64,000 nt of DNA, taken from the NCBI GenBank assembly GCA_014729395.1, contig WJJZ01000002.1, forward strand, positions 673 to 64,672, written 5' to 3'. The notes under the pieces were generated by a model. The model saw only the letters and a list, made by a program, of their open reading frames with translations. It was not told the DNA's origin and did no database searches. Both the position numbers and the translations under genes were made by a program. Each line of letters opens with the position of its first letter. The stretch's first letter is position 1. Positions 267-14,348 of the stretch are shown here, piece after piece. The stretch comes from Candidatus Magasanikiibacteriota bacterium. GTDB taxonomy: Bacteria; Patescibacteriota; Patescibacteriia; Magasanikbacterales; UBA922.

Positions 267-600
267 AAAACCATGTTATTAGTAAATAAATTATATTAAT
301 TATAATAACATAAGTCAAACAGAATTTAGTTAAAAAAAGATAAAATCGGTATAAAAAAATTATAAAATTTGGTCTGCTGTTGAACTTTGGACTCAATTGG
401 TTAACTCTTAAGAGTTAATTGTCAAAAGTTGAGTGTGAAGTTTGATGGCTAGAGCTATCTTGAACATTAAAATTGGAATTTAAAATATTGAATTTAGAAT
501 TTCGATTGAATTACAAATTTTTAAATTTATAAATTTAAAATTGATTCATAATTCGAAATTTGAAATTCAAAATTAAAACACGTACTTTCTTCCTCATTAT

Positions 601-720
601 TTTTTACTTGCGTATTTGTCATTCCCGCGAAGGCGGGAATCCAGTAAGCGGTATATGAGCCATGGATGACAATTTCCTGGATTCCCGATCAAGTCGGGAA
701 TGACATTTGAAAAAGTAAGA
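601..720. repeat. GC-rich REP/MITE-like palindromic element, copy 1
   Basis: Two perfect hairpins, ATTCCCGC-GAAG-GCGGGAAT and ATTCCCGA-TCAAG-TCGGGAAT, sit in inverted arms GTCATTCCCG...CGGGAATGAC. They are flanked by an imperfect outer inverted repeat ttactt.../...aagtaaga. The same 10-mers recur at 51138-51250. Confidence 0.7.
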
Positions 721-1010
721 AGTAGTGAGGAAGAAACAGGGGATTCTGCGCCAGCCAGCGCGGGACGGTAGATTGTTCAAGTGGTATTCCGACGGGGGTC
801 GGAAGAGCAATTTATTGACATAACCACGACTCCAACCCCTTCCCGCTTTAGCTCTAACAGTCTAAAAATATAGACGATGACGGAGCAGGGCTTAGGAAGA
901 TAAGGTTGGGGGAAATTGTATCCCCAGCAAACCAACGGCCGAGATATCCGTTTCGGCCAGAGACCAAAGGTCGGGATGGAAACCGACCGAACACAGAAAA
1001 GGATTGAGAC

Positions 1011-1853
1011 ATGAACAAGCACAACATAGAAGTGGTGTTCGAATACGGCAAGACGGTAGAGGGCGAGCAGAACATGCAGCCCAACACCATCTACATCGAC
1101 GGCTCCTTCCGGGGGCCGGCGATCCGGAACGACATCCGGACGTACAGCTTCGACCACCACGCGGGTTGCTCGCGGTTCGCCACCCTGGCGACCTGCGAGC
1201 AGGTGCTGCTCGCCATGGATCTCGGCCTGGACGTGTCGGGGATGACGGTCGTGATGAACGACCTCGATGCTGATGGCAGTCTCAGCCTGTGGCTCCTCCG
1301 CAACCCTAAGAAGTCGCAGACCCCCGAGATCCGCGCCATCGTCAAGGAGATCGGCTTCGTCGATGCGCACGGTCCCGTGCGTACCCCGGCCAAGCTCCAC
1401 AAGAGCCTGAGCCGCAACCCCCGCGTCCCGCAGACGATCGACATGCTCTGGGACGACCAGGGCAAGATCGACGCGTGGTACGAGAGGGGTGACGAGGCGC
1501 TCTCCGAGCCGTTCAGCTTCCCGCCCGCGCCGGCTTTCGGGCTGACGCAGGAGGGCGAGCTGGTGGAGCTCGAGAGCGCCGCCGACTTCGCCGAGGTCTA
1601 CGCCGCCGGCTGCGTCGCCGCCGTGATGGTACCCGAGGGCCCCGAGGGAACCAAGGGTTACACGATCGGCAAGCGCAGCGACTTCGTGAGCTACGACGTG
1701 CAGGCCTTCCTGGCCAGCATGAACGAGCTCGAGAAGGGCTGGGGCGGAGGGTCCACCATCGGTGGTGCCCCCCGTCTCGACGGTGGCAAGCGGTCGAGCC
1801 TGCCGGTGGAGACGGTCAAGTCCGTCTTCCTGGCGATCGCCCGCGGCGAGTAG
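1011..1853 (+). CDS. Hypothetical protein, 280 aa, GC-rich (contains FDHHAGC and DLDADGS motifs)
   Basis: An AAGGA sequence lies 6 nt upstream of the ATG. GC3 codon bias is high and uniform across the ORF. The full-length antisense ORF at 777..1865 is treated as a GC artefact. No confident family assignment could be made. A DHH-like tripeptide is present, but the order of motifs does not fit the DHH family. Confidence 0.55.
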   Translation: MNKHNIEVVFEYGKTVEGEQNMQPNTIYIDGSFRGPAIRNDIRTYSFDHHAGCSRFATLATCEQVLLAMDLGLDVSGMTVVMNDLDADGSLSLWLLRNPKKSQTPEIRAIVKEIGFVDAHGPVRTPAKLHKSLSRNPRVPQTIDMLWDDQGKIDAWYERGDEALSEPFSFPPAPAFGLTQEGELVELESAADFAEVYAAGCVAAVMVPEGPEGTKGYTIGKRSDFVSYDVQAFLASMNELEKGWGGGSTIGGAPRLDGGKRSSLPVETVKSVFLAIARGE

Positions 1854-2103
1854 CACAAGTCGCAATCACGCGACAAACCTCCCCAGCGTCACAGGGTACG
1901 CTGGAATAGGGAGGTTTACTAACCCTAAGCTAGTTGGCTAGAAAGGAGATAGTGTTATGGCTACACTACCAACTTTCAACTGGCAGTCCCGACCGTTTGG
2001 GACAAGGTGCTTCGCAGCCTTAAATGCGGCGGCAGACCCTACCCTTCGCGAGGGTAAGGCAGAGTCTGCGACGGAAGCCATCCCTCGCAAAAAAATTCAA
2101 ACG

Positions 2104-2484
2104 GCGTCTAACCCCAAAACAAAAGAGTAACCTGTGGGCGAGGGCGCAAGAGCTGATTTCTAGTGGAGTTCTTTCACATTAGCTCGAAACGAGTTGACCG
2201 CTCTATTCTGAGTAGGGTCAACAGCACTTGGGATAGGAAGTAGACGCACGCACATGCAACACTACTTCCTACCCGTCACATCTTACTTAAAGTTTAGGTG
2301 AGAGGTGATGGGGGAAAGGCTGAAAAAGCTTGAAAAGCTGGAAAGGCTTAAAAGGCTCGAGATTGGGTATTTGTGATTAGTGATTGAAGTTGTAATAGTT
2401 GTAAGAGTGGAAGATTAAGATTAAAACAGTAAATTGTAAGTAGTAACTAGTAATTAGCTTTTTGCTTGGTCTAGTTTAAAATTT
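2104..2484 (+). repeat. Direct repeat copy A
   Basis: Positions 2268-2484 are near-identical to 3290-3501. Upstream of that, conserved islands (CTAACCCCAA, GGGCGAGGGCGCAAGAGCTG, CTCTATTCTGA, GTTGACC, GGATAGGAAG...CTTCCTACCCGTCACATCTTACT) are separated by diverged spacers. Some stems carry compensatory changes (GGAAGTAG/CTACTTCC versus GGAAGAC/ATCTTCC). The repeat has three parts: a structured GC-rich segment, a micro-ORF and AT-rich iteron-like pseudo-repeats. Confidence 0.8.
2308..2376 (+). CDS. Conserved micro-ORF, 22 aa (MGERLKKLEKLERLKRLEIGYL), copy A
   Basis: GAGAGG lies 4 nt upstream of the ATG. The stop is TGA. An identical peptide is encoded at 3325-3393. The peptide has heptad-like K/L periodicity. 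Translation is not proven. Confidence 0.35.
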   Translation: MGERLKKLEKLERLKRLEIGYL

Positions 2485-2496
2485 ACAGATTTCTCT

Positions 2497-2582
2497 CTAT
2501 TAATAAACTTTGTCCAAAAAACAGAGTTTGGCAATAGAGAGAAATCTCGAACCGGTTTCTCCACCCCCGGTGGGTGGAGAAC
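2497..2582 (+). promoter_or_regulatory. Long inverted repeat plus GC hairpin directly upstream of the mCpol-like gene
   Basis: GATTTCTCTCTATT (2497-2510) pairs with AATAGAGAGAAATC (2535-2548). The loop itself contains aaactttg/cagagttt. This is followed by TCTCCACCC-ccggt-GGGTGGAGA at 2558-2580. Confidence 0.5.
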
Positions 2583-2630
2583 GCAAGCCGCCATAGGAGC
2601 GGACCGGTAAAGAATAAAATGAGGGCCGAC

Positions 2631-3080
2631 ATGCTATATCTAGCATTTGATGGCGATAACGTCGGCTCTCAACTCTCTCAGCTCATTGAGCTGGGCGAGG
2701 ATCGAGAGCTGGCGGCATACGCCGCCGGAGTGCAAGAAGAAATGTTCGAGACGGCGCGAGCTGCCGAGCGCATTGGGGCTACGGTCCTAATGTGTTCGGG
2801 GGACAGTTTGCTGTTCCGTCTCGAACATAAGAGTCAGGCGGAGCGTATCTTATATACGTTCCGCCATAGAAAGAAAAGGTTCGTCACCCATTCTGTGGGC
2901 GTGGGGCGGACCGTTCAGGAAGCCCACAAGAAATTGATGCATGCAAAGCTTGCCGGTAAAAACCGGGTGTGCTGGTATTACGAGCCAGCTCCTCTCGGGA
3001 GGCTTGTAATAGAGTCACTATTGCACCCGTTAGTGGCTCTAAAAAACTTTCACTTCAAAGGTTTTTTTCTTTGGAAGTGA
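2631..3080 (+). CDS. mCpol-like minimal palm-domain nucleotide cyclase (predicted), about 149 aa
   Basis: GAGGG lies 5 nt upstream of the ATG at 2631. LYLAFDGDNVG (strand 1, acidic pair) and LMCSGDSLLF (a hairpin equivalent to GGDD or GGDEF) are the hallmark motifs of RRM-like palm cyclases (Cas10 Palm, GGDEF, class III cyclases). The small size fits the minimal CRISPR polymerase family. Alternative starts at 2574 and 2619 are less likely. Confidence 0.6.
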   Translation: MLYLAFDGDNVGSQLSQLIELGEDRELAAYAAGVQEEMFETARAAERIGATVLMCSGDSLLFRLEHKSQAERILYTFRHRKKRFVTHSVGVGRTVQEAHKKLMHAKLAGKNRVCWYYEPAPLGRLVIESLLHPLVALKNFHFKGFFLWK

Positions 3081-3101
3081 AAGTTTCACCCACGTCAGAT
3101 G

Positions 3102-3501
3102 GCGCCTAACCCCAATAACATAACCACTTCTGGGGTGAGGGCGCAAGAGCTGCAAATTCTAAGCGAGATTCTCTCGTGGCAGCTCGAGACATGGTCGGCT
3201 TTACTCTATTCTGAAGCTAAAGTTGACCACACACCGTGAATCTATCCGGTTCACGGGCACTCGGATAGGAAGACAGCACATCTTCCTACCCGTCACATCT
3301 TACTGAGTTTATCAGTGGGAGGTGATGGGGGAAAGGCTGAAAAAGCTTGAAAAGCTGGAAAGGCTTAAAAGGCTCGAGATTGGGTATTTGTGATTAGTGA
3401 TTGAAGTTTTAATAGTTGTAAGAGTAGAAGATTAAGATTAAAACAGTAAATTGTAAGTAGTAATTAGCAATTAGCTTTTTGCTTGGTCTAGTTTAAAATT
3501 T
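3102..3501 (+). repeat. Direct repeat copy B
   Basis: See copy A. This copy contains the B-specific hairpin CCGTGAA-tctatcc-GGTTCACGG. Confidence 0.8.
3325..3393 (+). CDS. Conserved micro-ORF, 22 aa, copy B (peptide identical to copy A)
   Basis: GGGAGG lies 4 nt upstream of the ATG. The 69 nt are identical in both copies apart from their flanks. Confidence 0.35.
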   Translation: MGERLKKLEKLERLKRLEIGYL

Positions 3502-3593
3502 TGCTAATTTCTATTTACAAATTACCATTTACTGATTACTTTTTTGCTGAAGTCTGCCTGTCCGCCTCTGGCGGAATAGCCGAGAGCTGATTG

Positions 3594-4004
3594 CTAATTG
3601 ATCGGATTATTTTTCTTTATAACAAGATCCAGCTTTTTGTCAGTTCGGTCTTGTCTAAGAGAAAGAGTGTTATCGTTTTTTACCAGAAAATCAACATGTT
3701 CAGTTATTTCGAGTCTAAGTTCATTTAAATCCATTCTTGTAGCCATGGTATTATGAATTTCATCAAGTTCCCGATGAATTGACGCAATATCATCCTTGGT
3801 AGCCATATCACGACGAACGTCTGCAATATCAGTTTTAAGTTCACCCCTCAATTCATAAATGTCAGTCTTGAGTTCAGTTCTTAATTTGTCTATGTCAGTC
3901 TTGAGTTCAGTTTTGAGTTTACTAAAGTCATCTTTGGTAGATCCATTATCCTTGATAAAGTTAATGACCTCATAGACGTCTTTGATTGTAGGATCTTTTT
4001 TCAT
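3594..4004 (-). CDS. Coiled-coil repeat protein, paralog 2 (about 136 aa; repeats LKTELKTDIxxLR x3 and ATKDDI)
   Basis: The start is taken at MKKDPTIKDVYEV. The longer ORF-track start at 4055 translates AT-rich upstream DNA. An in-frame 33-bp tandem DNA repeat lies at 3850-3930. AT-rich composition contrasts with the GC-rich blocks on both sides. Confidence 0.7.
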   Translation of the reverse strand: MKKDPTIKDVYEVINFIKDNGSTKDDFSKLKTELKTDIDKLRTELKTDIYELRGELKTDIADVRRDMATKDDIASIHRELDEIHNTMATRMDLNELRLEITEHVDFLVKNDNTLSLRQDRTDKKLDLVIKKNNPIN

Positions 4005-4159
4005 AGTAATGTCACTTATTAAATAAATTATATAAATTATAATATCAAAAAGCAAATAAAATTATGATAAAAAAATTATTAAATTTATATAAACAAATTT
4101 TGAATCAATATTGAATTAGTAAATTTTAAATTAATAATTCAATCGAAATTCAAAATTTA

Positions 4160-4260
4160 AAATCAATCTAACCACCACGAATAACCACCACACACAAAGA
4201 GGGTTCTAGCTAGACCTCTTTGGGAGATATTTTTCTGTGGTGGTTAGATATCGACCAAAA
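4160..4260. repeat. Nested palindrome at the AT/GC junction
   Basis: Outer inverted repeat ATCTAACCACCAC (4166-4178) pairs with GTGGTGGTTAGAT (4238-4250). The inner hairpin CAAAGAGG-gttctagctaga-CCTCTTTG has a loop UUCUAGCUA that resembles the preQ1-I aptamer loop. Confidence 0.6.
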
Positions 4261-4265
4261 GGTCT

Positions 4266-4305
4266 AAAAAAGAGTCTTCTTGATCTGAGAAGGCTCTTTT
4301 TGTTT
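4266..4305 (+). terminator. Intrinsic terminator-like hairpin 20 nt before the GNAT RBS (possible attenuator)
   Basis: AAAAGAGTCTTCT-tgatctg-AGAAGGCTCTTTT is followed by TTTTTGTTT. The AAGGAGG RBS and the ATG at 4327 follow immediately. Confidence 0.55.
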
Positions 4306-4326
4306 AAAAAAAAGGAGGAAAAAAAA

Positions 4327-4743
4327 ATGACCGAGATTATTGACATGAACAGGTTGGCCCGTTTCGTATCTGGGCTGAAGCCATCGGCGCACGTCGCTAT
4401 TCTCTTCACTGGAGACCGACTGGCTTGCTGCGATGAAGCGGTGACTTTGCGAGTTGGGTGCGAGATTGTTGGCGTGGCCACGATTGCTCCCGAAGGGGAA
4501 GAGTATACGGGTCAGCCGACGATTGTGGCTCTATATATAGAGCCCGGGTATCGTCGACGCGGCCATGGCACTACCCTCATGAAGTCGGCGCTTGAGCGCT
4601 GCCGGGAACGTGGCTTTGAGACTGTCCGAGTTGATGTCATGTCCGACCATGTTATGAAAATCATCCGTAGTTTGCCGGCTGAACTGGCGACCATCTTGGA
4701 TGTCCATGATATGGGGGCCATGATGGACTCATTTCGAGGATAG
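4327..4743 (+). CDS. GNAT family N-acetyltransferase (138 aa)
   Basis: AAGGAGG RBS. The acetyl-CoA motif A, IEPGYRRRGHGTTLMKSALERCRERG, has the form Q/R-x-x-G-x-G/A. Confidence 0.8.
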   Translation: MTEIIDMNRLARFVSGLKPSAHVAILFTGDRLACCDEAVTLRVGCEIVGVATIAPEGEEYTGQPTIVALYIEPGYRRRGHGTTLMKSALERCRERGFETVRVDVMSDHVMKIIRSLPAELATILDVHDMGAMMDSFRG

Positions 4744-4845
4744 ATTATTTAAAAGGAGGATTCAAGGAGGAATCTTCCTCAGTTTTTAAAATATTTGAAG
4801 ATTGAGGAAGCATCACGAATGGGTCGTGATGCAAAAGGTTTTAAA

Positions 4846-4949
4846 AACCAAGGCCCGGTCTACCTGTGGTGGATGTCGCGTCGCTTGAATCAACAAGCGA
4901 TCCCGAAATTACTCGGGAGGAGCTACACTGGTTTTTGAAGGAGGAAGAG
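4846..4949 (+). promoter_or_regulatory. Conserved structured 5' leader element, type 1, copy 1
   Basis: AACCAAGGCCCGG...GTCGCTTG-aatcaa-CAAGCGAT, then CCCGA-aattac-TCGGG, then GAGGAGCTACACTGGTTTTT, then GAAGGAGG-N6-ATG. Also at 10027, 19850 and 21459. Confidence 0.7.
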
Positions 4950-5183
4950 ATGAAAAGAAAGATGGGCCTATGGCCCATGTGTATTTGCGGAGTAGAGCTC
5001 GCCGACGGGCACGAACTGTGTCCTGAGTGCGAGCAGGTGGAGGCCGACGGCCGCTGTTTGGGCTGCCGTCGGCCTGTCGAGGATGGACACCGAAGTCAGA
5101 TCGGGTTGTGCCCGGTCTGTACTGAATTGGTTCTTGACGGCGTGGAAGAGGCACGCCGCGAGACCATGTCTATCCCCGACTAA
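4950..5183 (+). CDS. Small zinc-ribbon protein (77 aa; CxC, CPEC, CLGC, CPVC)
   Basis: A GGAGG RBS lies directly after the type-1 leader. Four Cys pairs are present. The terminator hairpin T1 follows. Confidence 0.5.
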   Translation: MKRKMGLWPMCICGVELADGHELCPECEQVEADGRCLGCRRPVEDGHRSQIGLCPVCTELVLDGVEEARRETMSIPD

Positions 5184-5220
5184 AAACCGGTCATTCTAGG
5201 TGATCGCATACGTTCTTTCA

Positions 5221-5262
5221 ACACACAGGCACACATCCTAGACCCTGTGTGCCTCTACTTTT
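5221..5262 (+). terminator. Conserved-loop terminator hairpin T1 (GGCACACA-TCCTAGACCC-TGTGTGCC plus a T-rich tail)
   Basis: Member of a family of 5-6 hairpins. The loop TCCTAGACCCTG is invariant and the stems show compensatory changes. A conserved block TTCTGAAAGCG lies at 5285-5295. Confidence 0.65.
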
Positions 5263-5535
5263 AGAGATTGTAAATATTTATGATTTCTGAAAGCGTTTTG
5301 ATTTTGAAAAAATTGAAGCGTGTGATCGTTTTAAAAAAACCGTCTGACAAGGGCGGATGAAAATATAGAGAAAAGAGACCTTGGGCAGCCCTGCCCGGTT
5401 GGTTGTGTTACTAAACCTAAAAGTTATAGCGCACAGCAAGTCGATTTAGTTCGGCCGAGCAGGGTGGGTATGCCTCGACAGATGTCGGGGTAAGCGTTGC
5501 CGTAAGGCGCGCTACCGCTGCTTGAGGAGTCCAAG

Positions 5536-8500
5536 ATGACGAAGTCGAAAAAAAAGGGTTCCTGCAAGCCTTCGAGTGCGGGAATCAATGATTTGCCAAT
5601 CGTTGATTTTAAGGATGAGATCATGGGGAGTAGCGCCCCCTACATCATTGTCGAAGCCGAGACCGGCTCCGGCAAGTCGACTATGGTGCCCCAGTGGTTC
5701 CATGAGCTCGACATGTCGGTGCTCGTGACCGAGCCGTTGATTGAGACGGTAATCGGTACGAGCGAGTACGTGGCCCAGCTCATGGGCTGCGAGTTCGGCT
5801 CGACGGTCGGTTATCGTACGGGCAGTAGCCGGTGCGACAGCCGGGAGACTGATGTGCTTTTTTGCACGGACGGTCTTGCGCTCGTGCGCGAGTTGTCGGG
5901 ACACAATCGTTTCGACGTGCTCGTCATCGACGAGCTCCACGAGTGGAATACTAATCAGTCCACTCTGGAGGCCTGGGCGTGGAAGCATCTTCAGGCGGGC
6001 GATAGCCCGTTCCAAAAGATCGTGGTGCTGTCGGCCACTTTGAACTCGGACGAGCTCTCGCGCAAGCGGGGCAATGCTCCGGTGTTCAAGGTTCCCGGTC
6101 GACAGTTCCCGATCGAGGATCGGCGTGCCGGTTCGTCGATCGAGGCGGACGTGAAGTCGCTCGTCGCCGAGGGGCACGACGTCCTGGTCTTCCAGCCTGG
6201 GGCAAACGAGATCCGTGAGACCATCCAGACGCTCGAGCGTATGGAGGTCAATGCGGAGCTCATCCCGTTTTACGGGAAGCTCAGCCGGGAGGACAAGACC
6301 AGGGCGTACCGGTCGTACGGTCGTTCCAAGGTGGTGGTTTCGACCAACGCTTTGGAGACCGGCCGAACACTTGTGCCGTCACCCGGGCGCAAGCTCGCGG
6401 TCGTTGACTCCGGGCTCGAAAAGCGAGTGGAGCTCGACAATGATGGAATCGAGGGTTTGTACCTGGAGCCCATCGCCAAGGCTAAGGCCATGCAGCGTCG
6501 CGGTCGCACGGGTCGCGTTGGTGAGGGGATCTATATTGATCATTGTCCCTCCGCCGGCCGTCCGGCGTACCCCGTACCGGAAATTCTCCGGACGCGACTC
6601 GACCAGACCGTTTTGCGGTTGGCGTGTCATGGGTACGACGCGACCGAGCTTCCCTTCTTCCACGAGCTCGACATGAGCGTCATCGCGGAGGCCAAGCGGG
6701 CTCTGCAGGCGCTCGGAGCGATGCGGGAGGATGGAGACGTGACCAAGACGGGGCGTCTCATGTCCCGTCTGCCGGTCTCGGTCGGTCAGGCGCGGATGAT
6801 TATCGAGGCGGACAAGCGTGGTGTGGTGGACGATGTGATCACCATCGCCGCGATCTTGAACGTCAAGGGCATTTGTGACCGCACCGGAGCGTGGCGGGCG
6901 TACACCGTCGAGAAGCGTTCCGATGTTTTGGTCGAGCTGGACCTCTGGCAGGCCGCTCGTGGCAAGCGGAATCGCGAGCTGCGGGACATGGGGATCTTCG
7001 CCAAGGATTACCAACGAGCACGGCAGATCCGCCGCAAGCTCGTGGACGTCTTGCGACAGCATCGCGTGAAGCTGGGTTCGTCCGGCGATCGCGAAGAGAT
7101 CCTCAAGTCGGTTTGCGCCGGTATGGTCGACCACCTGTACAAGTTTTCTCATACAGACAGGATGGGGAACTGGTACGTAAATGGTGGGTCGTCCACTGCG
7201 CGGTTGCTTGGCAACCAGAGTGTGGTGGATGGCGGCCCGGACTGGCTGGTCGCGATTGGGTTCAATGTGCCGACCCGAAAGGGAGGCACACTCCCGATCG
7301 TCACGCAGGTGACGGCGGTTGAGCCCATGTGGCTCGCCGAGGTCGCTCCACAGCTGGTTGAGGTCAAAACCGGTCTCTCCCCCCGGTATGACCAGGAGAA
7401 GGACCTCGTGACTTCGGTCACCGAGATGTACTTCAACGGTCAGAAGGTGCGGGAAGAGAGGGTTGATGACCCGACTCATCCGGAGGCTGCGAGGCTTTTC
7501 GCCCAATATCTGGCAAGCCGTAACGATGTCGAGCCAATGTGTTCGAATTGTCGTCAGGCAAACCGGATGAAAGAGCTCAACATTCGGGCCGGCGAGGACA
7601 TCTTCCCGGTACCCGACATGGCGAGCTTCTACCAGGAGCGACTGAATGGTGCTCGTTCGATCCAAGAGATCGAGCCGGGTACCAGCCTCCGTTTGCCCAC
7701 CCTCGACGAGGAGCTCGTCAAGATGGTGATGGATGAAAATCCTGATACCATTCAACTCCTCGGAGAAGAGTTGACGGTGGAGTATCGGGCGCCATATTAT
7801 GGCCAGCCCAGAGCTCCGCGTGTGAAGCTCACGGATGAGCTCGTCAGCACGAATCGCTGGCTCGAGCTTCCGGACGAGGGAGTGTGGCTCCCGAGCGGTC
7901 GCTCAGTAGAGCTGGTGGTGTCCTTTGGGCACTACAATGAGCTCTCTGGGACCGACATCCCGAAGTTGAAGGTTGAGATGAGAGATTATCTCAACCGGAA
8001 GCAGTGGGATTCTTGGGTCAAGCCCGAGATCGAGATTCCGGATCTGTCGGCCGATGACGCCGTCGTCCCGTTTGTCACCAAGGTCTATGGGACCTGTGTT
8101 ACAACGGGTGACGAGCTCATGGCCTACGGTACAATAGCCGTGAACACGAGTCGCTGGTATGCAAGTGATCCGCTGTTCAAGGCCATGTGGTACCGCGATT
8201 TGATCGCGGCCCAGAACGCCGCCGACGCCTCCGCCGAGAAGCTCGTCGAGAAAAAAGATGAGCTGAAAGCGGCGAGGGCGCTCGAGCTGGCGAAGACCGA
8301 GGCTGAGGCCGCGCGCAAGGAGCTCCAAAATCTCAAGGGTCGTGAAGACTGGGAAGAGCTGGAGTACGACTTGCGGAGTCGAGTTAGCGACTTGCTCTAC
8401 CGCTCGTTGCCGCGCTCCATCGATGAACTTCGAGAGGATATTGAATCCACCAAGGCACTGATTGCCGAAGTGGAGAGTGCACTCGAGAAGTTCGAGAACG

Positions 8501-9507
8501 AGCGTGAGGCGGAAGAACAGCGCCTGCTCGAGGCCGAGGAGCGCGGAGAAATCCTGCGCGACTTCGAAGCCTGGCATCGCCGGGGCGGTATGACCGGCAA
8601 CGGAGACGGCTGGGTGATACGGCCGGACGGCAGCCTCCGCGACCGTGACAGTGATACAGTGCCACGCTACAAGCACGATGGCCAGTATCACTGGGACATG
8701 GTCAAGCCGGAGGAGCTGGCTCTCAGCTGGCGCTGCAGCACCAGGCGCGACGTCGACGGCACGAGCGACTTTAAAGTCGTGAAGGTGCCTGTCGACGGTG
8801 TGACGTCGGAGCAACTGCGCCGGGTGGAGGAGATCGAAGACGGTATCGGTGCAAGCCGTGGCGCTTTCGGCCTCCACGCCGAGATCACCCGCCGCAACGA
8901 GGAGCGTCTCGAGGCCTGCCGTGAGGCAGCTCTCAATGCTCGGGTGCGCGGTTCCCAGATCCTACGGAAGTTGCCGGAGACCTTCAGCTGGTTGAAGCTT
9001 GCCGGTGACGGCGTTCTCAACCTTGAGCACTATGTGGAGGACAGGAATGTCTTCCGCTACGTCAACTGGGCAGCAGAGTACGTGGGAGTCTGCGACAACC
9101 GCGACGCCTTTCTTCTCTTCGAGACAACCGCGGCCGATGGCAAGTTGCAGTTCGTCGTATATGAAAAATACGGCTCGAGCGACAACCTGGCTGTCCGCTG
9201 GCGGGAATTCACGGAAGAGGAGCTCGCTCAGCAGGCCGAGCATGAGACGCCCCAAGGCGACGGCCATTTCGTCGAGCGCTCCACCCGCCATTTCGCTTGC
9301 GATTGTGGTGGAACGACTCGGATAACCAAGTCCGAGTGGAAGCGCTACCGGCGAGGTGAGGTGCTGGAGCTCACCTGCACCCACTGCGGAGCTACCGGCA
9401 CTGTCTGCAAGGAAGCGGACGAAGAGCCGGAGGCGAAGCAGAACGGGAACGGCTCGAGCGGAGGCGGCGCCTCGATGGCCGATCTCATGGCCAAGTTCAA
9501 TCGCTGA
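5536..9507 (+). CDS. DEAH-box (HrpA/HrpB-like) ATP-dependent helicase with HA2 domain and long C-terminal extension, 1323 aa
   Basis: Walker A AETGSGKST, the DEAH box VIDELHEW, SATL, TNALETG, QRRGRTGR and an HA2-like block RLMSRLPVSVGQARMII...IAAILN are all present. The C-terminal roughly 600 aa has predicted coiled coil (residues about 890-1010) and a CxC...CxxC zinc knuckle near the end. It is not the DUF3418 tail found in E. coli HrpA. Confidence 0.85.
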   Translation: MTKSKKKGSCKPSSAGINDLPIVDFKDEIMGSSAPYIIVEAETGSGKSTMVPQWFHELDMSVLVTEPLIETVIGTSEYVAQLMGCEFGSTVGYRTGSSRCDSRETDVLFCTDGLALVRELSGHNRFDVLVIDELHEWNTNQSTLEAWAWKHLQAGDSPFQKIVVLSATLNSDELSRKRGNAPVFKVPGRQFPIEDRRAGSSIEADVKSLVAEGHDVLVFQPGANEIRETIQTLERMEVNAELIPFYGKLSREDKTRAYRSYGRSKVVVSTNALETGRTLVPSPGRKLAVVDSGLEKRVELDNDGIEGLYLEPIAKAKAMQRRGRTGRVGEGIYIDHCPSAGRPAYPVPEILRTRLDQTVLRLACHGYDATELPFFHELDMSVIAEAKRALQALGAMREDGDVTKTGRLMSRLPVSVGQARMIIEADKRGVVDDVITIAAILNVKGICDRTGAWRAYTVEKRSDVLVELDLWQAARGKRNRELRDMGIFAKDYQRARQIRRKLVDVLRQHRVKLGSSGDREEILKSVCAGMVDHLYKFSHTDRMGNWYVNGGSSTARLLGNQSVVDGGPDWLVAIGFNVPTRKGGTLPIVTQVTAVEPMWLAEVAPQLVEVKTGLSPRYDQEKDLVTSVTEMYFNGQKVREERVDDPTHPEAARLFAQYLASRNDVEPMCSNCRQANRMKELNIRAGEDIFPVPDMASFYQERLNGARSIQEIEPGTSLRLPTLDEELVKMVMDENPDTIQLLGEELTVEYRAPYYGQPRAPRVKLTDELVSTNRWLELPDEGVWLPSGRSVELVVSFGHYNELSGTDIPKLKVEMRDYLNRKQWDSWVKPEIEIPDLSADDAVVPFVTKVYGTCVTTGDELMAYGTIAVNTSRWYASDPLFKAMWYRDLIAAQNAADASAEKLVEKKDELKAARALELAKTEAEAARKELQNLKGREDWEELEYDLRSRVSDLLYRSLPRSIDELREDIESTKALIAEVESALEKFENEREAEEQRLLEAEERGEILRDFEAWHRRGGMTGNGDGWVIRPDGSLRDRDSDTVPRYKHDGQYHWDMVKPEELALSWRCSTRRDVDGTSDFKVVKVPVDGVTSEQLRRVEEIEDGIGASRGAFGLHAEITRRNEERLEACREAALNARVRGSQILRKLPETFSWLKLAGDGVLNLEHYVEDRNVFRYVNWAAEYVGVCDNRDAFLLFETTAADGKLQFVVYEKYGSSDNLAVRWREFTEEELAQQAEHETPQGDGHFVERSTRHFACDCGGTTRITKSEWKRYRRGEVLELTCTHCGATGTVCKEADEEPEAKQNGNGSSGGGASMADLMAKFNR

Positions 9508-9635
9508 CAATTCAACCGGCCTGACCACAAGAAAACAGGGCCGGATAAAAAATAATATGTTTTCTGCGGAAAAACCGGCGGCCGTCCCAATAGGGAATAG
9601 AGCCGGTTTACATATATGTTCTTTTTTGGTAATTT

Positions 9636-9665
9636 TGGGGACAGGACTGAACATCCTAGTCCCCA
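9636..9665 (+). terminator. Variant of the conserved-loop hairpin (TGGGGA...ACATCCTAG-TCCCCA), T6
   Basis: It shares ATCCTAG with the T1-T5 loop. It lies 130 nt downstream of the helicase stop. At 9574-9612, an AAACCGGC/GCCGGTTT hairpin and a T-run precede it. Confidence 0.35.
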
Positions 9666-9737
9666 CCCTTCACTACTTATTTAAAATTTAGATAAGTGTT
9701 GAAGGGAAATTGGTTCCCTTCAGCAGAGGGAGGTGTC

Positions 9738-10016
9738 ATGAAAAGAGAGATAGTTGTCGCGGACAGGGACTTTGAAGTGTACCGACCGGAGCGCCGGTAC
9801 TACCGCCTAGATCGTAGGCACTGGGATCTGGAGCCTGGTACCCGGGTGACCGTGAAGGTGTGGCGGAAAAAAGGTCGCTACAAGATTCTGAGTGCGGTCG
9901 TTGTTGAATTTTTTTACTGGTGTCAGTGTGGGGTTTGTGACCCCACCTATTTCAAGGCCGCTATGCTGAACCGCCATTTCGACGGTAAGCTGAAGCGAAA
10001 GGATACAGACTATTAG
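9738..10016 (+). CDS. Hypothetical small protein, 92 aa
   Basis: GGGAGG lies 5 nt upstream of the ATG. GC-rich. Contains CQCGVCD. Confidence 0.4.
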   Translation: MKREIVVADRDFEVYRPERRYYRLDRRHWDLEPGTRVTVKVWRKKGRYKILSAVVVEFFYWCQCGVCDPTYFKAAMLNRHFDGKLKRKDTDY

Positions 10017-10026
10017 AAAACAAAAA

Positions 10027-10157
10027 AACCAAGGCCCGACTTGCCTGTCTGCTTTACAAAGTGGTGAAGAGATTGGCAGGTGTCGTGTTGCCTGAATCAA
10101 CAGGCAAGCTTGGGATTTTCCCAGGTGGAGCTACACTGGTTTTGAAAGGGGTAAGAG
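10027..10157 (+). promoter_or_regulatory. Type-1 leader element, diverged copy 2
   Basis: The same architecture is kept with compensatory stems: TTGCCTG-aatcaa-CAGGCAA and TGGGA-ttt-TCCCA. GAGCTACACTGGTTTT is conserved. An RBS and the ATG at 10158 follow. Confidence 0.65.
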
Positions 10158-10640
10158 ATGAAGAAAATCACGGACGCTTGTAACGAGCAGAGCTCAGTGG
10201 TCATCCAGGTGGCCGGAGGGTACATGAAGTGGTACCCGGCAGATGAGCAGAGGAGAGTGGAGTTCTACCTCCAGGGAATCGAAATCGATCCCCGGGTTCA
10301 GGCGGTGGATTTGCTCCTTGCCATGAACCAAGACGATGACATGGTGTTATGTAGCATCAATTGTCCGTCATTGGTACTTCCAATGGAAGTGATCGAGGAG
10401 AACGAACTCCTCATCGCCGATGGTGCTGTCTGGTTCAGGCGACCGTCCAGTGAAGGTGGTGAGCGCTACCCCGAGCCACCATCGAGATTGCGGTACACGG
10501 TCAAGGCACCTGGGGGATTTTCTCCGTGGGGTACGACCAACTGCCTCGAAGAGGCGCAGAGAATCCAACAAAAAGCTCTTGAGGAGGGTGTTGAGGACAT
10601 CGGTATCCGGGAAAATTCGAGTGGCAAATATCTAGGGTAA
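10158..10640 (+). CDS. Hypothetical protein, 160 aa
   Basis: Preceded by the type-1 leader and followed by T2. GC-rich. Confidence 0.5.
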   Translation: MKKITDACNEQSSVVIQVAGGYMKWYPADEQRRVEFYLQGIEIDPRVQAVDLLLAMNQDDDMVLCSINCPSLVLPMEVIEENELLIADGAVWFRRPSSEGGERYPEPPSRLRYTVKAPGGFSPWGTTNCLEEAQRIQQKALEEGVEDIGIRENSSGKYLG

Positions 10641-10669
10641 TGAATGTCGTTAGAAAAATTTTTAACCTC

Positions 10670-10712
10670 CGGGCACACATCCTAGACCCTGTGTGTCCAT
10701 TCTTTCAAAGAT
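10670..10712 (+). terminator. Conserved-loop terminator hairpin T2
   Basis: GGCACACA-TCCTAGACCC-TGTGTGTCC plus TTCTTTC. A TTGAAAGCAC block follows at about 10731. Confidence 0.65.
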
Positions 10713-10863
10713 CATAATAATTTGTGGTTTTTGAAAGCACCGTCTACTTGTGTTAGGCGGTGCAAGAAGCTTTGTTAAAAATATCTTTGCAGCCTCTAAT
10801 TATTTGATAATTAGAATCTCTCTCCGCTGCAATCTATATTTTTGATAAAAGCAAAAAATAAAA

Positions 10864-13955: not shown

Positions 13956-14348
13956 TTAGTTTCTAATTTTATTAATAAAGGAATTAAGTTTTTTCGTCAG
14001 CTTTTTGTACTCTTGATCAAGATTTTTAAATTCCTCCTCACTTGTATATTTATTACCAAATGCGACTGATAAGTGGCTGCGTGTTTCCATTATTTCACCT
14101 CTTGCAATGTAAAATACTCTGACTTTATCTTTATAAAAATAACGTCCATGAGCTTCGGCAATATTAGCTATTATGGAATTAGCTGACCTTGTTATTTGAC
14201 TTTTTAGGGAATATTTTTCAAATTCTGGAAAAGTAGCGGATAATTTATAAATTTTCATTAATAAATTATATCCTTCTTTCCAAATTTCCAACTCATGGAA
14301 TTCTTTGTACATTTTTTGTTTGTTAAATTGGCAATTATAATGGGTCAA
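13956..14348 (-). CDS. Four-helix-bundle protein (23S rRNA IVS-type, TIGR02436-like)
   Basis: LEIWKEGYNL...RSANSIIANIAEAHGR...ARGEIMETRSHL. Confidence 0.8.
   Translation of the reverse strand: MTHYNCQFNKQKMYKEFHELEIWKEGYNLLMKIYKLSATFPEFEKYSLKSQITRSANSIIANIAEAHGRYFYKDKVRVFYIARGEIMETRSHLSVAFGNKYTSEEEFKNLDQEYKKLTKKLNSFINKIRN

Follow-up and report, generated by a model that had tools for sequence, protein, structure and literature searches.

The 64,000-nt stretch of Candidatus Magasanikbacteria DNA analyzed here (hereafter the window) carries a gene for a minimal CRISPR polymerase (mCpol) that is bracketed by two long direct repeats (2097–2484 and 3095–3501, blastn), as the initial annotation had noticed. 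What we describe is an orphan mCpol of mobile-element type together with unusually large, structured cassettes that resemble PeSL (promoter early stem-loop) elements, in a genome of the candidate phyla radiation (CPR, Patescibacteria); no new mechanism emerges from it yet, and the functions discussed below are inferential. PeSL cassettes of T4-type phages are repeated intergenic elements that flank non-essential open reading frames (ORFs) in variable regions, join stem-loops to a promoter and provide the homology for the gain, loss and circular excision of single genes (PMC2839356; PMC4122927). The reading that we favor, albeit tentatively, is that the window repeats are paralogous, PeSL-like modular leader/promoter cassettes of a mobile island, bracketing an inserted mCpol cassette. 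Most likely, the island uses the cassette repeatedly, as a module for regulation and recombination, and the cassette is not a dedicated partner of the enzyme.

The mCpol gene and its related loci

Judging from its sequence, the ORF that ends at 3080 encodes a palm-domain cyclase of minimal size that falls into the mCpol family, whether it starts at 2619, as annotated by NCBI, or at the alternative ATG at 2631, which is preceded by GAGGG 5 nt upstream and yields a product of 149 aa. The ORF matches Pfam PF18182 over profile positions 1–112 of 114 (E = 1.6e-14; 54.7 bits, the curated cut-off being 26.4), its product is 100% identical to an NCBI entry on a 150-kb MAG contig that bears the name 'mCpol domain-containing protein [Candidatus Magasanikbacteria bacterium]', and the profile of the subclade to which it belongs matches the solved structures of Panoptes mCpol, 9mnr and 9nwn (E = 3e-7). 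In the alignment with these crystallized OptS/mCpol proteins, FDGDNVG pairs with IDGDDVG and SGDS with AADG, so that the metal-binding Asp residues (the D-x-D of strand 1 and the G-D hairpin) are retained; both motifs are invariant throughout the subclade. The palm-cyclase assignment made in the initial annotation is thereby borne out.

The window protein and the Panoptes mCpol (OptS) have in common a single minimal Cas10-like palm domain with a core of about 120 aa, the D-x-D, the G-D hairpin and a C-terminal GKN motif. They differ in three respects: the window protein belongs to a rare, divergent subclade with a C-terminal extension, this subclade occurs in phage- or plasmid-like gene rows whereas Panoptes mCpol occurs in defence islands, and the window gene has no adjacent 2TM-beta or CARF-TM effector. 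The extension (window 2990–3080), an aromatic/hydrophobic stretch of about 30 aa (W-W/Y...P...HP...K), is present in every subclade member and missing from the crystallized Panoptes mCpol. As to the effector, Pfam and PADLOC scans of nine island proteins detected neither a 2TM-beta nor a CARF-TM protein near mCpol, in agreement with the earlier observation; the neighbors within ~8 kb are a DHH-fold protein, a 57-aa ORF, a coiled-coil protein, a GNAT, a Zn-ribbon protein and a DEAH helicase. The window mCpol is most likely an orphan cyclic-oligoadenylate synthase of mobile-element type, with its catalytic residues kept and without an effector gene. To our knowledge, characterized mCpols act only together with a toxic effector that is silenced by their product. 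The window gene adds to the family a rare, effector-less branch borne by mobile elements, and the occurrence of mCpol as an orphan on phage-like DNA hints at a different use, for example counter-defence or signal mimicry.

The subclade is rare: a search of 1.84 billion proteins yields four representatives at E ≤ 1e-30, a number that rises to 35 at E ≤ 1e-10. Its identity with most of the mCpol family does not exceed ~30%. No relative of mCpol was recovered by a protein-based locus search of viral and genome collections, nor by tblastn against phage and plasmid collections. Five related mCpol loci come with DNA (L001, L002, L014, L015 and L016). No 2TM or CARF effector was found in these five loci, for which gene calls are available, and every readable one is a phage-, plasmid- or mobile-element-like gene row: in L002, mCpol has a MYG1-type phosphoesterase upstream and Kyano_Gp96 downstream; in L014, it is accompanied by ArdC-N, ParB_N, PolyA_pol and a DEAD helicase; in L015, by HNH endonucleases; in L016 and L001, it is found on short contigs. 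In each of them, the genes are spaced by the element's own repeated intergenic cassette. This cassette is a sigma-54-like TGGCAC-N5-TTGCT motif in L002 (three to four sites upstream of genes), TGGCAT-N5-TTGCA plus TTAGCTCATCATATTA in L015 (seven to eight copies), AT-rich modules of 40–110 nt around mCpol and its neighbors in L014 and L016, and in L001 a segment of 51 nt, containing a hairpin with a TAGCACTC loop, that lies on both sides of mCpol (E = 6e-4). The L002 and L015 motifs, which precede genes in phage-like contigs, are near-consensus sigma-54 −24/−12 elements (TGGCA[CT]-N5-TTGC[AT]) and suggest phages whose gene rows depend on promoters of the sigma-54 type; a search by eye found no sigma-54 promoter in the window cassette.

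The GC-rich gene located two genes upstream of mCpol in the window codes for a 280-aa protein with a DHH fold that displays DHH and GGGH-like motifs, as in the DHH/DHHA1 phosphoesterases. On account of this fold, the protein may be a functional partner of mCpol, and it would be a candidate for the turnover of the mCpol product. A DHH- or MYG1-type phosphoesterase lies beside mCpol in two or three loci. We considered whether the 280-aa protein is homologous to the MYG1 protein of L002 and to the C-terminal fragment encoded upstream of mCpol in L001, and rejected this as not significant (nothing by BLASTP; hhalign E = 0.05 and 0.025, both alignments falling on the FDHH and GGAPR motifs), and the link between mCpol and a phosphoesterase is consequently tentative. 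The 280-aa family is present in IMG/VR contigs of 131–409 kb and in phage-like contigs with endolysin genes. Two of its loci, L009 and L013, carry the 280-aa gene and no mCpol, and a GC-rich viral contig of 164 kb, L025, encodes a homologue with 55% identity.

The repeated cassette

Each repeat consists of a structured 5′ half, a micro-ORF and an AT-rich tract (Table 1). Blastn aligns 2257–2484 with 3274–3501 at 93–94% identity over 228–230 nt (E = 6e-98); the repeat pair is real, well beyond chance, and a collapse or duplication during assembly, which the initial annotation had put forward as a possible artefact, is excluded because the two copies differ. Further upstream (2097–2256 and 3095–3273, ~170 nt), similarity is confined to short islands, namely TCAAACGGCGTCTAACCCCAA (86%), GGGCGAGGGCGCAAGAGCTG (95%), CTCTATTCTGA and GGATAGGAAG...CTTCCTACCC. 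The 15 differences in the 228-nt block are unevenly spread, 11 of them being clustered at the edge of the P4 loop and at the P5 apex, while the segment that runs from the Shine–Dalgarno sequence (SD) to the end of the AT-rich tract (2302–2484) is identical at 179 of 183 positions (97.8%). Thus, an identity of 97%, proposed earlier for the 3′ 220 bp, holds for this segment and not for the block as a whole, and with only four differences in 183 nt, the SD, micro-ORF and AT-rich tract are more strongly conserved at the nucleotide level than the structured half. No further full copy was found by blastn in the window.

Table 1. Position of the mCpol gene, the repeats and associated features in the window
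Feature	Coordinates	Strand	Description
280-aa gene	1011–1853	+	GC-rich; two genes upstream of mCpol; divergent DHH/DHHA1-fold phosphoesterase structure
57-aa ORF	1957–2130	+	Strong ribosome-binding site (RBS); last 11 codons inside the start of repeat copy 1
Repeat copy 1	2097–2484	+	Cassette upstream of mCpol; structured 5′ half, micro-ORF, AT-rich tract
Structured domain, copy 1	2104–2312	+	Series of five hairpins
P1/P1b	2104–2147	+	Encloses CUAACCCC
P2/P2b	2150–2185	+	After the GCGCAAGAGCUG junction
P3	2193–2222	+	Loop shows UAUUCU / CUCUAUUCUGA
P4	2233–2275	+	GGAUAGGAAG...CUUCCUACCC
P5	2273–2312	+	Directly after P4; paired with the micro-ORF's SD and AUG
Micro-ORF 1	2308–2376	+	22 codons, MGERLKKLEKLERLKRLEIGYL, plus stop
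AT-rich tract	2377–2484 (copy 2: 3394–3501)	+	108 nt, nearly C-free, stop-dense, short repeats of the TTGTAA type
Unique mCpol-proximal leader	2482–2606	+	Promoter-like site, inverted repeat, GC-rich double hairpin
mCpol gene	2619–3080	+	153 aa as annotated by NCBI
Hairpin over the mCpol stop codon	3044–3086	+	16-nt arms, 94% complementary, no U-run behind
Repeat copy 2	3095–3501	+	Begins 15 nt past the mCpol stop; same architecture plus an extra hairpin, 3230–3256
Structured domain, copy 2	3102–3329	+	Helices of copy 1, P3 stem rewritten, one extra hairpin
Micro-ORF 2	3325–3393	+	Peptide identical to that of micro-ORF 1
Inverted repeat	3441–3530		30-nt arms, 83% complementary; links the end of copy 2 to unique sequence
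Third, partial cassette copy	9636–9706	+	P4 and P5 only; cmsearch 34.5 bits, E = 6e-10 to 3e-11

The structured halves of both copies, about 210 nt long, are predicted to fold into the same series of hairpins, P1 to P5. With RNA parameters, the minimum free energy is −76 to −78 kcal/mol for copy 1 (z = −4.7/−5.1 on the + strand vs −2.0 on the − strand) and −97.5 to −101.6 kcal/mol for copy 2 (z = −7.4/−8.0 vs −4.3); with DNA parameters, the sense strand also folds better (z = −3.2/−7.7 vs −1.9/−6.0). The complementary strand folds worse because several helices rely on G-U (G-T) pairs, and this asymmetry points to a transcript of the + strand rather than to a palindrome of duplex DNA. Both copies retain every one of the 45 modelled pairs, three of them with a double change and seven with a compatible change on one side, and the sequence of the P3 stem is wholly replaced between copies with its pairing intact. 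When a third copy described below is included, which contributes six pairs changed on both sides, the 45 pairs are 99% paired and nine have changed on both sides; none of 500 shuffles equaled this result, and slid controls reached 42–54%. The impression of a structured RNA whose diverged 5′ part keeps islands and covarying stems is thus supported.

These data bear on the idea that an old tandem duplication, or the 3′ end of a small gene, is decaying into the repeats seen today, which would be devoid of function and structured only incidentally. There are three copies only, at a single locus, and the peptide fragments A(S/P)NP and RAQEL, common to the 57-aa ORF/copy 1 and to a copy-2 ORF (3099–3239) in shifted frames, hint at former coding. 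However, every substitution in the 45 modelled pairs keeps the pairing, P3 has been rebuilt with a new stem, the z-scores go down to −8, and the near-identity of the 3′ half stands beside saturated loop positions; we therefore regard a functionless remnant as unlikely. A coding remnant in particular was rejected, since the lengths of the indels between the copies are not divisible by three and the peptide fragments in common lie in shifted frames.

The five-hairpin RNA is without a known class and was found in this island alone. Rfam, whose families include c-di-AMP, c-di-GMP and cGAMP riboswitches, ribozymes, ToxI and retron msr, gave no match at gathering thresholds over the whole window; at E ≤ 10 in 1800–3700, it returned just microRNA-precursor models, far under their gathering scores (best E ~0.04), and a tRNA/tmRNA search found none. 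Blastn of 1900–3600 against phage and plasmid collections gave no match, DNA patterns of the conserved islands in the repeat had no match in viral contigs or GTDB genomes, and the six matches of a pattern scan of metagenomes were all due to chance. A covariance model built from the two repeat copies (model R1) found no match outside the window over ~265 kb of related loci, and none of the five related mCpol loci carries the window RNA.

In the predicted structure, P5 pairs with GAGAGGUGAUG in copy 1 and with GGGAGGUGAUG in copy 2, which corresponds to the layout of an expression platform occluding the SD. The strong GGAGG ascribed to the micro-ORF by the initial annotation is found in copy 2 only, copy 1 reading GAGAGGTG instead. 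The 22-aa peptide is indeed the same in both copies, but the micro-ORF is a 9-nt tandem repeat (AAAGGCTGA × 4.8, Tandem Repeats Finder (TRF)) that displays zero substitutions, so that conservation of coding is indistinguishable from conservation of the nucleotides. In leaders that sequester the SD (riboswitch platforms, RNA thermometers, 5′ untranslated regions (UTRs) of type I toxins), a terminal hairpin likewise covers the SD and start codon after a long structured region; the window cassette differs from them by the lack of an Rfam match and of any evident ligand, antisense RNA or hydrophobic toxin.

Might the cassette then be a small-protein gene with a translation-blocking 5′ UTR, akin to a type I toxin–antitoxin system, that was duplicated around mCpol? 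In the mRNAs of toxins such as hok, tisB, zorO and aapA, the SD and AUG are buried behind a structured leader. In the window likewise, a stable hairpin that comes after a 200-nt structured leader encloses a good SD and AUG, the ORF is identical in both copies, and a 61-aa ORF with a similar K/E/L-rich stretch occupies an equivalent position in L009. Nevertheless, type I toxins are small hydrophobic membrane proteins, whereas the window peptide is highly charged (eight basic and four acidic residues) and has no hydrophobic span or transmembrane segment; moreover, it is encoded by a 9-nt tandem repeat that offers no substitution by which to gauge a coding constraint. We give this possibility little credence.

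The AT-rich tract terminates in AATTAGCTTTTTGCTTGGTCTAGTTTAAAAT. Its tandem periodicity, described as iteron-like in the initial annotation, is weak according to TRF (AGTTGTAAG × 2.3 and a 7-nt unit × 4.9). The origin or centromere reading offered for the repeat by the initial annotation lacks support, as there is no Rep or Par gene nearby. It is highly improbable that the 9-nt array and the tract constitute protein-binding DNA, either the iterons of an origin together with an unwinding element or a centromere for partition. The succession of the 9-nt array and of a 108-nt AT-rich tract, both near-invariant between copies, would fit such a role, but no Rep gene, DnaA-box cluster or Par gene was found in the island, a pair of copies separated by 1 kb, with a cargo gene in between, does not make an origin layout, and the 9-bp period is off the helical repeat. 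In L025, a promoter cassette repeated over 1605–3343 (AAATTAG[AC]TTGTTTTAGGTCATAATAAT) resembles the cassette end AATTAGCTTTTTGCTTGGTCTAGTTTAAAAT of the window (2452–2484 and 3469–3501); this weak lead may reflect a shared type of phage promoter or chance.

Reuse of the cassette and its likely role

The window region 600–10,750 is a row of + strand GC-rich genes (55–64% GC) separated by AT-rich spacers, in a genome with 31–41% GC; core genes (RecA, FtsK) begin from 12.8 kb, past the island. This row is best explained as derived from a phage or mobile element lodged in the AT-rich Candidatus Magasanikbacteria chromosome; the viral and phage-like contigs that harbor the 280-aa family and the ArdC-N, ParB_N, HNH and Kyano_Gp96 genes next to mCpol relatives speak for such an origin. 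A search with model R1 finds P4 and P5 a third time in this row, before another cargo. This partial copy stops 32 nt before an ATG (9738) with which an unrelated gene of 92 aa begins; the SD and start of that gene (GGGAGGTGTCATG) are similar to those of the micro-ORF. Here, P5 is not paired with the SD, which lies 20 nt downstream. The 3′ strand of this P5, UGAAGGGAA, can alternatively pair with UUCCCUUCA (9716–9724; whole region 9666–9724, + strand); in this model, two mutually exclusive hairpins upstream of the 92-aa gene SD could possibly form a switch.

Other flanks are shared as well. The 5′UTR/RBS segments 4874–4954 and 10081–10162, which precede unrelated genes (those of the Zn-ribbon protein and of a 160-aa protein), are 77% identical, and 5228–5294 and 10672–10738, downstream of the same two genes, are 81% identical and contain terminator-like GC-rich hairpins with a U-rich tail. 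That two unrelated genes share both sides is further evidence that flanks are swapped as modules. Beyond the window, L009 and L013 display strongly folding leaders of 230–540 nt, with GCACTYGG and a (U)AGCAC-loop hairpin, before several non-mCpol genes, and the window P4 (GCACTCGGATAGGAAG-ACAGCACAT-CTTCC; as RNA, GCACUCGGAUAGGAAG-ACAGCACAU-CUUCC) resembles this hairpin type. The five-hairpin element is a candidate for a new family of leader RNAs, as are the related (U)AGCAC-loop hairpins. In L025, cassettes combining a terminator hairpin and an AT-rich promoter are repeated between GC-rich genes. Altogether, the presence of P4–P5 before an unrelated gene, the own cassettes of the related mCpol loci and the L009/L013 hairpins indicate that flanking by repeats is a property of the mobile gene row and not of mCpol. 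The idea that the repeat is a specific part of a new mCpol signaling or defence module is not supported by these comparisons.

In terms of the PeSL-like reading, the cassette would be transcribed from the + strand, along with or between the island genes. Its 5′ half would form the chain of five hairpins predicted by folding and supported by covariation, and the predicted pairing of P5 with the SD and AUG that follow would block the start of translation until the hairpin opens. The near-invariant AT-rich 3′ half could serve as promoter or operator for the next gene, which for copy 1 would be mCpol, possibly via a promoter-like site at the junction, TTTACA-16-TAAACT (2482–2509; 9/12 matches). 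Since the cassette is present on both sides of mCpol, the 1.0-kb 'cassette + mCpol' unit looks like a gene cassette gained by recombination; it would have been acquired by homologous recombination between modules and could be excised in the same way. The likeness to PeSLs lies in the arrangement: two full copies flank mCpol, a third, partial one precedes another gene, other shared flanks occur in the island, and analogous cassettes are present in all related loci.

Several points weigh against this reading. PeSLs measure ~50–70 bp and occur in T4-type phages, whereas the window cassette extends over ~390 nt, is far more elaborate, with five hairpins, a buried SD/AUG and a micro-ORF, and is located in a CPR bacterium or its mobile element. 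PeSLs are recognized by a strong sigma-70 early promoter and a terminator stem-loop; here, a sigma-70 scan returned four promoter-like sites for 3.8 expected in shuffles, and no canonical terminator was found in the cassette. Copy 2 is followed by a convergent gene, so that there is none it could drive. A simple role as promoter or leader does not account for the 97.8% identity of the SD, micro-ORF and AT-rich tract next to a P5 apex that is scrambled. The covariation comes from three copies of one locus, in an alignment fitted to the model. Finally, we infer the strand, the ends and the promoter use of the cassette from sequence, and recombination, which would imply an empty site and a mini-circle, is likewise a deduced step.

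The structured half might alternatively be a new riboswitch-like sensor, or a trans-acting non-coding RNA, with a functional link to mCpol. It could, for instance, detect the cyclic oligoadenylate that mCpol produces and gate the translation of a 22-aa cationic amphipathic peptide, which would replace the protein effector. Consistent with such a sensor, the element is a domain of several helices in which loops and junctions are conserved (CUAACCCC, GCGCAAGAGCUG, CUCUAUUCUGA) and the stems covary, its terminal hairpin hides the SD and AUG as a classic expression platform does, the complete P1–P5 version, including the P1–P3 domain, is found solely in the two copies beside mCpol, no protein effector is encoded near mCpol, and no known RNA family matches. 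The hypothesis is nonetheless improbable: none of the five other mCpol-clade loci with DNA has the RNA, P4–P5 precedes an unrelated gene too, the hairpins merely follow one another in a line and are not closed by a junction, the 9-nt tandem repeat brings no independent evidence of coding for the micro-ORF, and pattern scans of viral, genome and metagenome sequences yielded no homologue. A more specific version, to which we attach a very low probability, is an RNA-gated circuit of the Panoptes type, in which the five-hairpin RNA would read the cyclic oligoadenylate of mCpol, or its depletion by an invader, and switch the peptide or the next gene, the DHH-fold phosphoesterase resetting the system.

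Single-strand promoters of the Frpo/ssi type were reportedly described by Masai and Arai in 1997. Such elements are documented as repeated, strongly folding sequences placed before co-directional early or anti-defence genes of plasmid leading regions (PMC11541004), and the window structures could act in the same manner as single-stranded DNA, as promoters or priming signals in the leading region of a conjugative element or one transferred as single-stranded DNA. The co-directional row of the island does contain repeated, strongly folding intergenic elements, and the ArdC-N and ParB_N genes beside mCpol in L014 are of the leading-region type. In addition, the unique leader next to mCpol harbors a palindrome (2487–2547, 27-nt arms) with a −35/−10-like pair on one arm, followed by a GC-rich double hairpin (~2551–2606); 2485–2630 folds equally well on both strands (z ~ −7). 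However, the 5′ domain favors the sense strand with both RNA and DNA parameters, whereas Frpo needs a fold of the template strand; the domain is a chain of short hairpins and not one long promoter-mimicking hairpin with −35/−10 in its stem; and no relaxase, origin of transfer (oriT), type IV secretion or other transfer gene was seen in the island. A single-stranded DNA role thus appears doubtful to us, and hardly probable.

If the PeSL-like reading holds, CPR islands can consist of GC-rich phage genes punctuated by long, structured, reusable intergenic cassettes, and a shuffling architecture of the PeSL kind would exist far beyond T4-type phages, with much larger RNA-like modules.

Further features of the island

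Two known types of repeat were considered and rejected. The copies are not the template and variable repeats of a diversity-generating retroelement, as their differences show no specificity for adenine and a reverse transcriptase is absent, an Avd-like gene (13956–14348) standing alone. Nor are they integron attC sites: GYCTAAC at the copy start fits RYYYAAC, but there is no complementary GTTAGRC (R′) and no integrase among the island genes. The Avd-like gene (− strand), of the 23S-rRNA-IVS/bAvd four-helix-bundle type, lies beside recA with no reverse transcriptase nearby.

No family match was obtained for the 57-aa ORF that runs into copy 1. At the other end of the cassette unit, the inverted repeat 3441–3530 lies just downstream of the convergent coiled-coil gene (3594–4055, − strand). 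This AT-rich gene has a paralogue at 1–265 (− strand; ~72% identical), both with a weak match to phrog_9415, and each of the two is located upstream of a block that consists of GC-rich genes on the + strand; a similar palindromic spacer, rich in AT, follows each of them (484–574 and 4095–4163). Upstream of the 280-aa gene, the region 586–736 contains palindromic repeats of the type GTCATTCCCGC-N-GCGGGAAT(CC/GAC), which we take to be reminiscent of the ATTCCC-N8-GGGAAT small palindromic elements of other bacteria. Lastly, the same island encodes, at 5536–9507 (+ strand), a GC-rich DEAH/HA2 helicase of 1,323 aa (HrpA-like), the C-terminal extension of which comprises ~850 aa with coiled-coil and Cys-rich segments.

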